A stretch of DNA of 48,762 nucleotides from Bacteroidota bacterium. GTDB taxonomy: Bacteria > Bacteroidota > Rhodothermia > Rhodothermales > Rubricoccaceae. A program made the translations under genes and the position numbers. Each line of letters begins with the position of its first letter. Position 1 is the stretch's first letter. The stretch covers positions 1-48,762 of the forward strand of contig JBCCLD010000002.1 of the NCBI GenBank assembly GCA_039027055.1, read 5' to 3'. Shown here in pieces: positions 13,932 to 16,468 of this stretch. The notes beneath the pieces are model-generated. The model saw nothing but the letters and a program-made list of their open reading frames with translations. It searched no databases and was not told the origin of the DNA.

Positions 13932-14384
13932 TTACCCGCGCTCCAGGAACACGAGCGCGGAGAAGTGCGGGCCGCTCGCGCTCGTGGGCGCGACGTGGGC
14001 CACGCGCCAGCCGTCGGCGAGGGCGGCGTTGAGGGCGTCGAGGCCCTCAGTCTGGCTGCCACTGCGGGCGACGAGGATCACCTGCTGCGCCAGGGTCGCG
14101 GCGGCAGGGCGTGCGGCGAGGCGCTCCTGTGCGGGGGCGGTCGGGCGGTCGTCGGCGAAGAAGACGGAGCGCGTGCTGCCGCGCCGCTCCGGCGACGGCT
14201 CGTAGGTGCTGCGCCCACCGCCTTCACCGTCTTCCGGGAAGGCCGGAACCCGGTCGCGCGTGACGCGCCCGGCGGGGCCGAGGGGCGCAGTGACCGCCTC
14301 AGCCACGGGATCGGCGACCATAAACGGGTCTTGGCCGAGCGTGCCGAAGAAGTCGATGGGGAATTTCCGCTGGGGCTTGGACAT
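13932..14384 (-). CDS. small protein with a basic N-terminal peptide, a P/A/R/G-rich linker and a C-terminal GWRV module (DUF4177-like); candidate ParA partner
   Basis: MSKPQRKFPIDFFG..., then low complexity, then QQVILVARSGSQTEGLDALNAALADGWRVAHVAPTSASGPHFSALVFLERG. It is paralogous to the module in 15601..16005. It starts 44 nt downstream of the ParA-like gene on the same strand. It was trimmed from the 326-aa ORF-track entry. Confidence 0.6.
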   Translation of the reverse strand: MSKPQRKFPIDFFGTLGQDPFMVADPVAEAVTAPLGPAGRVTRDRVPAFPEDGEGGGRSTYEPSPERRGSTRSVFFADDRPTAPAQERLAARPAAATLAQQVILVARSGSQTEGLDALNAALADGWRVAHVAPTSASGPHFSALVFLERG

Positions 14385-14428
14385 GAGCCGGGCAGACGGA
14401 CGGGCTGTGGGTGAGGGAAGCGGAGGAG

Positions 14429-15283
14429 TCAGGAGGCGGGTGCCGAGACCGGGGCGGGCGCGCCGTCGCCGGCCACCTGCGCGCGGGACGCGCCGTTGAG
14501 CTGCGCGAACACCGCGGCGTAGCGACGGATGCGCTCGGTCACCTCGGTCACGAGCGCCTGGTAGTCCCTGGCGCCTTGGCTGTCGGGGGCGAACTCGTAG
14601 ATCGTCTGGCCGAGGCCGGGCGAGTCGCTCAGCGTGTCGTCCTTGCGGATCATCGTCTGGAAGACCTTGCTGCCGTAGTGCCCGCGCACCTGCTGCTCGA
14701 TCTCGGCGTGGCTCTCGTTGTTGGGGTCCACCATCGTCATGATGACGCCGAGCACCGGCGCGACGCGGCCCAGGTTCATGCGCACCTGCGTGACCACCTC
14801 GCCCAGGCTCACGAGGCCTTCGAGCGCGAGGTAGGAGGGAGACAGCGGGATGATGAAGGCATCGGCGGCGACGAGGATGTTCACCGACAGCAGCGACGTG
14901 GACGGCGGGCAATCCATCAGGATCACGTCGTACTCGTCCATGACCTCCTCGATGGTGCGCCGGAGGACGCTCTCGCGGCCCGAGTGCTCGGCGAGGCAGA
15001 GGTCGGCGTCAGCGAGGTCGAGGGAGCCGGTGATGAGGTGCAGGCGCGGGATGTGCGTCTGCAGAATGGCGCGCCGGATCGGCACTTCGCCGTAGAGGAC
15101 GTGCGCGATGGACGGGCGCAGCTTCGCCCGCTCGATTCCGAGCGCTAGCGAGGCCGAGGCCTGGCTGTCCATGTCGATCAGCAGCACCCGCTGCGTCTGC
15201 GCTAGGCCTGCAGCGAGGTTGATCGAGGTCGTCGTCTTGCCGACGCCGCCCTTGTTGTTGATGATGGAGATAACCTTGAGCAT
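14429..15283 (-). CDS. ParA/MinD-family P-loop ATPase (orphan; no ParB nearby)
   Basis: MLKVISIINNKGGVGKTTTSINLA is the deviant Walker A with signature Lys. DMDSQASAS is Walker A'. VILMDCPPS is Walker B. The start was trimmed to ATG 15283. Confidence 0.9.
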   Translation of the reverse strand: MLKVISIINNKGGVGKTTTSINLAAGLAQTQRVLLIDMDSQASASLALGIERAKLRPSIAHVLYGEVPIRRAILQTHIPRLHLITGSLDLADADLCLAEHSGRESVLRRTIEEVMDEYDVILMDCPPSTSLLSVNILVAADAFIIPLSPSYLALEGLVSLGEVVTQVRMNLGRVAPVLGVIMTMVDPNNESHAEIEQQVRGHYGSKVFQTMIRKDDTLSDSPGLGQTIYEFAPDSQGARDYQALVTEVTERIRRYAAVFAQLNGASRAQVAGDGAPAPVSAPAS

Positions 15284-15600
15284 GGGGCAGACAAGAGCGT
15301 CGGCGCTGAGAGCAGGCTGTGCGAGTGAGTACCTGACCCACACAAAAGGCAGGCCACCCCGCGCGCGCTGTCTAAAAAACACCTACGGGAGCCGTCAAAC
15401 CTAGCCCTGCTGCCTCTGTGCCGCCCCGTTTCCGCCGGCAGATGCGGGCGTTCCTACCCAGCCCACTTCCGCTCTTTCCTCCTCGCATGGCACAAAACAG
15501 CCACCCCCCGGCACGTCTCGTACCGGAGGGCGGCGGCAGGCTAGCCTCGGAGGGGAGGAAGACTAGCGTGTTGGAGTTCGATGGGGCGTGGCCGTGTGTG

Positions 15601-16005
15601 TCAGGAGGAGGGCGTGTCAACGGAACGCTCCCAGGTCACCACGGGCGGGAGGTCCCCCGCGCCGTCGCCCACGTAGCCACCGGTGGCCCCATGGCCGCGC
15701 TCGCCCCCACAGCGATGGGGACCGACATGCCGGTGCGGCGTGCGCGCGAGCAGAACCTGCACCTCGAAGTCGAGCGGGGCGGCGTCGGGGGGGGCTTCGG
15801 AGCGAACGCTCACCACGCGCCACCCTTCACGCAGCGCCGCGTGCAGCTTCTCCACCCCCTCTACCACGTCGCCGTGGCGCACGAGCGTCATGGTCTGCTG
15901 CACCAGGGATGACATGACCCCGGTAGCAGGTCCAGCGTCGGCCTCTGCAAACGCACTGGTGCGCCGGTGCAGAAACGAAGAGGGAAAGAGTCGGTGTTGC
16001 GTCAT
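15601..16005 (-). CDS. small protein with a GWRV module (DUF4177-like) and a His/Cys/Gly-rich tail; paralog of 13932..14384
   Basis: QQTMTLVRHGDVVEGVEKLHAALREGWRVVSVRSEAPPDAAPLDFEVQVLLAR aligns with the C-terminal module of the downstream small protein. GC3 is high in this frame. The start is either ATG 16005 or the internal ATG giving MSSLVQQ. Confidence 0.5.
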   Translation of the reverse strand: MTQHRLFPSSFLHRRTSAFAEADAGPATGVMSSLVQQTMTLVRHGDVVEGVEKLHAALREGWRVVSVRSEAPPDAAPLDFEVQVLLARTPHRHVGPHRCGGERGHGATGGYVGDGAGDLPPVVTWERSVDTPSS

Positions 16006-16468
16006 TGATCCACACGAGCTAGGCTAAGGAGGGGACGCGGCTGTAGGGTGGATCCAGCAGGTCGAGCCCCGTCGGTCAAAGCACAGGCCAACCGCATATG
16101 TGTGGACCAATCCCTACCCGCGAGTTAGGCTTACTCTCACACGCGATGTCCCATCTTGCTACACGCAGACGTACATATAGCAAGTCTAACCATCAATTAT
16201 ATATAATCAAAACAATGTTTTAGATAAGTAAGACAAACACTTACATCGAGACTGGAGAAATACCCTAAGTCTCTTGAAAACTGTTTGCTCGAGCCGACTG
16301 ATAACGAGACAGTCGAGGCGTTACAAAACACCCTCCAGGCGGGAAAAAGCGTAATAGGACCCCACATCAGTCTCCTATGCCGTTCTTTTGTCCAGCCTGA
16401 ACGCTCGGCTCGGCTCTCATATGACGCACTAAGCTTCCTCGTCTAGCCTTTCACCTCCCCCCGCTCTC

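Follow-up and report, generated by a model that had tools for sequence, protein, structure and literature searches.

A ParA-family ATPase and its small downstream protein form a candidate positioning module of a Rhodothermales-restricted family

Relation to described systems

Known partners of ParA/MinD ATPases act on the ATPase through a disordered N-terminus, and because partners are too diverse to recognise, most genomic ParA/MinD ATPases remain orphans (PMC10241942). Here we describe an ATPase of this kind, P0002, and the two small proteins encoded beside it, P0001 downstream and P0003 upstream, on contig JBCCLD010000002.1 of the Rhodothermales assembly GCA_039027055.1 (positions 1 to 48,762, a stretch of 48,762 nucleotides with a G+C content of ~69%, referred to here as the window). 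All three open reading frames (ORFs) are present on the minus strand, as a preliminary description of the window had proposed: P0003 (134 residues) at 15601..16005, P0002 (284 residues) at 14429..15283 and P0001 (150 residues) at 13932..14384. All three are under purifying selection within the genus, with dN/dS values of 0.03–0.08 for the ParA gene, 0.05–0.28 for P0001 and 0.13–0.25 for P0003. We consider it probable, with some reserve, that P0002 and P0001 are a ParA/partner positioning module of a new family restricted to the order Rhodothermales; for P0003, the best-supported reading is that the genus has a second, paralogous partner differing in linker length and motif completeness.

The locus works like the ParB-peptide/ParA, McdAB and ParFG systems, yet is a member of none of them. 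Closest in sequence is the chromosomal pair of ParA (Soj) and ParB, for which the structures from Myxococcus xanthus (8RAY) and Thermus thermophilus (1WCV/2BEJ) served as references. As in that system, large hydrophobic residues abound in the disordered N-terminal motif of the partner; the motif, however, reads F..FF..DP-Φ-Φ here and LG[RK]GLxALI there, and the present locus has no ParB/CTPase domain, no parS and no adjacent ParB.

With McdA–McdB and other adaptors (PMC10241942; PMC7182216) the locus shares the form of a two-gene cassette, comprising an ATPase and a small, largely disordered partner whose N-terminal region would face the ATPase and whose remainder would serve the cargo, and several systems may coexist in a cell. 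Unlike McdAB, no carboxysome or microcompartment genes lie near this or related loci, P0001 has no sequence similarity to McdB, and in most members of the partner family the N-terminal motif is acidic/hydrophobic, not positively charged. In ParF–ParG (TP228), too, a small partner follows the ATPase, acting on it through a flexible N-terminal tail and ending in a small dimeric domain. Here, by contrast, the C-terminal domain is not a ribbon-helix-helix (RHH), centromere repeats are missing, and the locus is chromosomal and multi-copy, with acidic partners.

The ATPase

P0002 can be assigned to the ParA/MinD (deviant Walker A) ATPase superfamily. It passes the cut-offs of the Pfam models AAA_31 (E=1.5e-52, 178.6 bits) and CbiA (E=5e-23, 81.8 bits), which bears out the earlier identification of a ParA-like ATPase by its motif NNKGGVGKTT. 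Aligned to 8RAY and 1WCV, this deviant Walker A motif (NNKGGVGKT, residues 9–17, 15233..15259, minus strand) contains the signature lysine K11 as well as K16, and the segment DCPPS falls on the Walker B region; D39 aligns with D60 of M. xanthus ParA. The signature lysine and the catalytic Asp are both features shared with Soj. The nearest solved structures are M. xanthus ParA (8RAY, E=1e-46) and T. thermophilus Soj, McdA structures being only distant matches (E ~1e-14), and every score for P0002 with the NCBIfam partition and MinD models is far under the cut-off (ParA_partition, 110.8 bits against 180; minD_bact, 50.4 bits against 212.9). At the C-terminus is the signature ER[IL]xRY[GA]x[VI][YF], a subfamily extension (RYGxVY) without counterpart in Soj.

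A separate Soj, 38% identical to P0002, is encoded on contig C460 of the assembly, and the sole ParB_N match of the assembly is on contig C67, so P0002 is an extra, non-chromosomal-type ParA; we regard it as an additional Soj-derived copy belonging to a Rhodothermales-specific subfamily. No ParB is encoded in the window, in keeping with what had been noted of the neighbourhood.

The downstream partner

P0001 starts 44 nt past the ParA stop codon, exactly as first described, and with this short gap and no terminator in it the two genes are probably co-transcribed. Genus orthologues of P0001 are 63–87% identical, and a genome of another family of the order (G025) has a distant orthologue encoded behind a ParA of 58% identity. 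Neither P0001 nor P0003 matches any Pfam or NCBIfam model. In the AlphaFold2 model of P0001 (67-sequence alignment), residues 1–98 are disordered, with a predicted local distance difference test (pLDDT) of 48–67, and residues 99–149 (13938..14090, minus strand) form a strand-strand-helix-strand-strand unit with a pLDDT of 91–97, referred to here as the GW module. With its first ~98 residues disordered and a small folded end, P0001 is built like known ParA/MinD partners (PMC10241942).

At the head of the disordered part, and itself modelled as disordered, is the N-terminal motif MSKPQRKFPIDFFGTLGQDPFMV (residues 1–23, 14316..14384, minus strand), composed of a basic head with positive charges at K3, R6 and K7, an FPxxFF segment and a DP-Φ-Φ element. 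Within the linker is a second short linear motif, RSVFFADD (residues 72–79, 14148..14171, minus strand), with the family pattern S-[VIL]-F; it recurs as DSVF, NSIF and SPLF in partners of subtypes A and D, and as a C-terminal PRSLFDF in subtypes B and C.

The partner family always has this three-part architecture of N-terminal motif, disordered linker with S-[VIL]-F, and GW module. A word search yields 40 clusters of it, and at 50% identity there are 138 among 1.84 billion representatives; one repetitive match of 3209 residues apart, these are all small proteins. Subtype A begins MSxFGSR[ED]DDPLLQxDPLAP; subtype B has the N-terminus GFFGxIFxxPEDDPLL and the C-terminus PRSLFDFG; subtype C has LSLSSIFQDFFDxPEDDPLLQ and PRSLFDF at the corresponding ends; and subtype D, which includes P0001, begins M-[ST]-[KR]...F-P-x-x-F-F...D-P-[FLI]. 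Invariant across subtypes are M1, F13, D19 and P20 of the N-terminal motif, with L22 nearly so, and G125 and W126 of the GW module, with L115, N119 and A121 nearly so; subtype D adds K3, R6, F8 and P9 as invariant positions.

The N-terminus of P0001 had been described as a basic peptide. This holds for P0001 itself, and K/R residues ahead of DP are kept in subtypes D (K3, R6) and A (FGSR), but they are missing in many B and C members. Because the invariant residues F13, D19 and P20, and the nearly invariant L22, are not basic, the family-wide N-terminal determinant is hydrophobic/acidic (F..FF..DP-Φ-Φ). A metagenomic protein of 183 residues, P0257, joins a subtype-A N-terminal motif and an ESVF linker motif to an unrelated helical C-terminal domain that replaces the GW module, an arrangement compatible with a portable tag that faces the ATPase while the cargo end varies.

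The P[RQ]SLFDF(G) C-termini of subtype B and C partners (P0130, P0137; loci L058, L068) resemble both the linker S-[VIL]-F and the N-terminal DFFG. The PRSLFDF and S-Φ-F motifs may be loosely like the QL[SD]LF-type clamp-binding motifs. Two metagenomic short ORFs in which a ParA fragment is joined directly to a partner C-terminus (P0270, P0282) seem to be ParA–partner cassettes that have undergone internal deletion or were chimerically assembled, and they were not used as Rosetta-stone fusions.

Pairing and co-diversification

A strict search with P0002 through 201 sampled Rhodothermales genomes placed the ParA subfamily (43–58% identity) at 23 sites in 14 genomes, distributed over the families f1, f2 and f24. 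Directly downstream of 17 of these 23 genes is a partner with motif and GW module, and one further subfamily ParA opens a ParA-ParA-partner tandem. A single genome (G124) carries five subfamily ParAs and about four pairs, and the ParA gene lies immediately upstream of the partner in all three metagenomic contigs that were looked up. The ParA tree groups by partner subtype, with 10 label changes against a shuffled mean of 18.2 (none of 200 shuffles reached 10) and with support of 100/99 for clade C and 100/94 for clade A. The pair has therefore duplicated and diverged as a unit, and the unit conserved across the three families of the order is the two-gene cassette of ParA and downstream protein. 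The adaptor role conjectured for the downstream protein thereby gains from its position, from the match between clades and subtypes, and from its architecture; taken together they support the view that it behaves like a cognate partner of this ATPase.

An insensitive search of 126 genomes from other orders of the class, which missed the known partners of G008, G016 and G025, turned up no partner. For the small proteins, the closest relatives with a name are from "Bacteroidota bacterium" metagenome-assembled genomes (MAGs), Longibacter salinarum (Rhodothermales) and Salinibacter sp. 10B.

ParA-ParA-partner tandems occur in relatives at loci L057, L061 and L077/L078, where they precede a subtype-C partner, and at L059/L070. 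The first ParA of these tandems is 36–49% identical to P0002 and falls in a separate clade. A family of Roadblock/LC7-like proteins of 121–141 residues (Pfam Robl_LC7 and LAMTOR5, E ~0.04–0.06, below threshold) is encoded next to subfamily ParAs in seven loci of other Rhodothermales (L077:4941-5306(-), L081:6091-6456(-) and L079:8579-9004(+); also L063, L069, L071 and L072), three of the seven having no GW partner. A search of the present genome found no Roadblock-like gene. This protein may be a third component or an alternative partner.

Predicted partner-binding surface

In M. xanthus ParA, the pocket for the ParB peptide is formed by V116, L150, L152, L155, L187 and L192, ParB R13 is contacted by Y81, E82, D110 and E117, and R238E is a DNA-binding-deficient variant (bioRxiv 10.1101/2025.03.14.642875). 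P0002 was mapped onto this structure (8RAY), and the site numbers 81, 82, 110, 117, 150 and 238 used below are those of M. xanthus. The pocket equivalents in P0002 are L95, T129, L131, V134, Q166 and L171, hydrophobic at four of six positions as a likeness to Soj. The R13-contact equivalents are A60, H61, D89 and C96, so that Y81, E82 and E117 are exchanged for A, H and C, and R238 is exchanged for T217. The genome's own Soj has the canonical residue at every mapped site.

Throughout the subfamily there is A at site 81, mostly T at 150 and never Arg at 238; Arg occupies 117 in most members, and subtypes B and C additionally have Arg at 110. The R13-contact site is thus remodelled in all members. 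By this mapping, the subfamily has lost the nucleoid-binding arginine of Soj (R189 in Bacillus subtilis, R238 in M. xanthus). Net charge at 82/110/117 correlates with net acidity of the partner motif (Spearman 0.59, p=0.005, n=21), the rows being phylogenetically non-independent, so that n=21 stands for roughly six clades. Such covariation is expected if the N-terminal motif occupies the docking site of the ParB peptide and the contact has the opposite polarity in most clades.

The upstream paralogue

P0003, separated from the ParA gene by 317 nt, is a short-linker paralogue of P0001. BLASTP aligns the C-terminus of P0001 with the middle of P0003 at 40% identity over 57 residues (E=5e-10), and both are modelled by AlphaFold2 with the same ~50-residue fold, which agrees with the paralogous module first noticed in the two proteins. 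In P0003 the GW module comprises residues 35–88 (15742..15903, minus strand; pLDDT mostly >90) and is followed by a variable, disordered tail; it is 41–43% identical to P0001-type modules versus 18–34% to the family of standalone GW proteins described below.

The preliminary description recognised the shared module of P0003 and overlooked that the N-terminal motif of P0001 is present as well. This motif, MTQHRLFPSSFL (residues 1–12, 15970..16005, minus strand; core R-L-F-P-S-S-F-L), corresponds to the first half of the subtype-D motif (MSKPQRKFPIDFF versus MTQH-RLFPSSFL). It is conserved as M[TN]xxRLFP[SA]SF[LQ] in all five genomes of the genus, and dN/dS for residues 1–30 is ~0.2–0.45. The pattern ^M-x(1-6)-[KR]-x(0-2)-F-P-x-x-F-[FL], applied to 140,525 candidate starts of the assembly, picks out only P0001, P0003 and one site on contig C4 that sits inside a long ORF, a count that is indicative and not a formal probability, as the pattern was composed after both proteins were known. 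The start at 16005 is supported by the conservation of residues 1–12 and by the G002 orthologue, which has no internal Met. P0003 is thus read as a full-length partner-like paralogue with N-terminal motif and module, not as a mere module carrier.

Other assignments of P0003 were rejected. A start at M31, which would make it the genus orthologue of the standalone GW family, is at odds with the lack of a Met there in G002 and with the conserved residues 1–12; as a standalone orthologue in general it fails in that its module is nearer to that of P0001 and that the genus has a separate 74-residue standalone gene (G004:C18). A match of its tail to the standalone profile is circular, P0003 being part of that profile. 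The His/Cys/Gly-rich tail pointed out earlier does exist, yet it is largely an insertion private to this genome: ~16–18 residues, PHRCGGERGHGATGGYVG (15667..15720, minus strand), are missing in the four genus orthologues, which read TPHRHVGDGA at this site.

Between P0003 and the ParA gene is a terminator-like hairpin of 16 pairs, 12 of them G–C (15500-15534, minus strand), followed by the T-rich run TGTTTTGTG (15490..15534 in all); the expected count of such sites in shuffles of the region is 1.1. Because the 317-nt gap holds this hairpin, P0003, ParA and P0001 are probably not a single operon, and P0003 probably has its own transcription unit.

The GW module and its standalone relatives

Two Foldseek searches of the PDB with the GW module gave nothing under E=0.06, so no solved fold could be assigned to it in this way. 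The best partial likeness is to oligomerisation domains, namely ACT and NikR C-terminal (ferredoxin-like) domains. With DUF4177 (PF13783), a family of which the module had seemed reminiscent, it shares a similar size and the local helix-end/strand pattern LN..GW[ER][LV]. Membership was rejected: Pfam gave no match at E up to 1 for P0001, P0003, P0072 and others; the PF13783 model, in a genome scan, matched no GW protein though it detected the true DUF4177 genes of the same order; and hhalign returned 21% probability over 14 columns, covering the LN..GW.L stretch only.

The module is also found in standalone proteins of ~74–120 residues with the consensus MxxQKALIVxTGxxGxxGLDELNxxLxRGWRVxxxxPMGG...FAALVV[IL]E[RQ], usually continuing into a strongly acidic tail that contains a VEGDG motif; the modules of subtype D are the closest to this family. 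It includes at least 186 clusters, none of them named and none with a Pfam domain. Members are present in 66 of the 201 sampled genomes, concentrated in families f1, f2, f17, f18 and f24. A separate standalone gene occurs in 13 of the 14 pair-bearing genomes, a figure that is not an independent statistic because the genomes are related; in the present genome (G000) just a fragment on contig C275 points to such a gene. No description of the partner family, its fold, its two motifs or the standalone family was found in the searched family libraries and literature.

Contig C275 (G000:C275:6000-6405, L104) ends 11 nt into an apparent 74-residue standalone GW gene, ATGTCCAAAGA. In G004 (L102:601-718), the standalone gene is followed by a dispersed element of ~115 nt, which has >40 copies in this assembly, and the break of contig C275 is probably due to this dispersed repeat.

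Proposed mechanism and alternatives

In the mechanism that we favour, the ATP-bound ParA dimer would bind the N-terminal motif of its partner in the hydrophobic pocket at the dimer edge, the site of the ParB N-terminal peptide, and a neighbouring electrostatic contact would have co-varied between ATPase and partner. In this genus a basic partner (K3, R6, K7) would meet an acidic/neutral ParA site, whereas in most other clades an acidic partner motif (EDDPLL) would meet an Arg-bearing one. Docking in this pocket is suggested by the structural mapping and the charge covariation. Binding of the partner may then stimulate ATP hydrolysis and release, and the GW module may dimerise or bind GW-type proteins, thereby defining the cargo. 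P0003, probably separately transcribed and with half the motif and a short linker, could be a second adaptor or a competitor/regulator acting on the same ATPase.

Several observations weigh against this reading. The partners have two conserved short motifs, either of which may be the one that faces ParA. The charge covariation rests on about six independent clades and has an exception in G025, in which R117 is found with a basic partner. The DP-Φ-Φ half of the motif is missing from P0003, and no P0003-like gene was seen upstream of ParA in the related loci compared outside the genus; the three-gene arrangement whose conservation the preliminary description had proposed to test is kept across three families as the pair only, the triad being confined to one genus. 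The gene neighbourhood gives no hint of a cargo, nothing being kept beyond lineage synteny. No MinD-like C-terminal membrane-targeting helix is evident in P0002 or its subfamily, which, together with the absence of the DNA-binding Arg, makes the matrix uncertain.

One alternative, which we regard as unlikely, is that P0001 is a MinE-like antagonist that activates the ATPase without a separate cargo, forming with ParA a self-organising pattern or polarity switch in which the GW module only dimerises; in a variant of it, the regulator might work in other Rhodothermales with the Roadblock/LC7-like proteins encoded beside these ParAs. MinE, too, is a short protein that combines an N-terminal ATPase-contact segment with a small α/β domain; here that domain probably dimerises, and its weak fold likeness points to the dimer-forming ACT/NikR-C-type domains. 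The lack of a conserved cargo gene nearby would be natural for such a system, as would Roadblock-like genes that adjoin subfamily ParAs even where the GW partner is missing; the present genome, on the other hand, has no such gene. The long, variable, disordered linker with a second motif, and the several pairs per genome, are more like cargo-specific adaptors, and the GW module exists as a standalone family as well. Nor does the ATPase resemble MinD in what would matter here: a membrane-targeting sequence was not seen, MinC is not encoded nearby, and the MinD models, minD_bact included, score far below their cut-offs.

A second alternative reverses the polarity of the partner: the GW module would face ParA, and the N-terminal motif would bind another partner, for example a replisome or envelope component, and tether ParA there. 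Such a scheme accords with the presence of two distinct conserved short motifs, one of which would suffice for ParA contact, and with the module being the most conserved part of the protein. We nevertheless hold it to be improbable: standalone GW proteins are common without this ParA subfamily (66 versus 14 of 201 genomes), P0257 retains both motifs and swaps the module, the charge of the ParA site co-varies with the N-terminal motif, and the likeness to clamp-binding motifs is a loose, putative one.

Very improbable, in our estimate, is a DNA partition system of type Ib, in which P0001 would be a small centromere-binding protein whose GW module sits on repeats of a chromosome region, island or plasmid. 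In its gene order, a ParA gene and then one for a small protein whose N-terminal tail is flexible, the locus matches the ParF–ParG type, and NCBIfam ParA_partition and RepA give partial matches (E ~1e-31). These matches, however, are far below the cut-offs, and plasmid ParAs are at most ~41% identical to P0002, on which ground a plasmid origin was rejected. The cassette and its surroundings contain neither iterons nor tandem repeats: no repeat family there exceeds three short copies, and there is no intergenic array. The module is neither RHH nor helix-turn-helix nor basic; strong acidity marks most family members and their standalone relatives; one genome has four to five subfamily ParA copies on its large replicons; and the ATPase is without the non-specific DNA-binding Arg.

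That the small genes are fortuitous neighbours, hypothetical ORFs of a GC-rich genome with no functional tie to ParA, is close to refuted: high G+C does yield many spurious long ORFs here and neither protein falls in a Pfam or NCBIfam family, yet selection on the genes is purifying, the model of the module is of high confidence, the adjacency is kept across three families and in metagenomes, and ParA and partner have diversified together.

A wider form of the favoured positioning-module reading can be put forward tentatively, and we hold it to be rather doubtful. Rhodothermales may own a multi-paralogue ParA positioning family whose electrostatics are inverted relative to ParB-type peptides, the basic peptide having been restored in this genus, and whose ATPases lack the canonical nucleoid Arg; the GW module would have been recruited from a ubiquitous small acidic-tailed protein, assemblies of that protein would be the cargo, and two adaptors would compete here.

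Significance

The partner family is clearly delimited and new, with ~138 clusters, two short linear motifs and a new small fold. It comes with several paralogous pairs per cell and with natural charge variation at the predicted docking site, and these properties together make it a compact system for ParA–partner specificity and the avoidance of cross-talk between paralogues. The standalone GW proteins with their acidic EGDG tails, an abundant and unstudied Rhodothermales family, would be linked to a positioning machine and so acquire a first functional lead. If it is true that the ATPase bypasses the nucleoid, the known range of positioning matrices would be widened.

Surroundings and further observations

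Neighbouring genes encode an LD-carboxypeptidase, an EEP-family nuclease/phosphatase, a caspase-like peptidase and RecQ. A defence-system assignment was rejected, PADLOC having returned merely a trivial P-loop match. Between P0003 and the divergent caspase-like gene is an AT-rich stretch without ORFs (16080-16440), which is probably a promoter region common to both.

A contig labelled as a Pseudomonadota MAG (L101, JAUXQH010000148.1) contains a 33%-identical match to P0001 residues 54–149; it is either mis-binned or the sole sign that the module exists outside Rhodothermales. Members of the standalone GW family are encoded at L009:1630-1920 and ~30 other loci (proteins P0007-P0126). In 13 loci from several families, the divergent neighbour of the standalone gene is a D-Ala-D-Ala-ligase-type ATP-grasp gene with weak TTL similarity, and 5 of these 13 have a further conserved gene, by eye a KamA-type radical-SAM aminomutase, of which a truncated copy had no Pfam match. 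The adjacency of standalone GW and ATP-grasp genes could reflect conserved synteny or a functional link such as modification of the tail.

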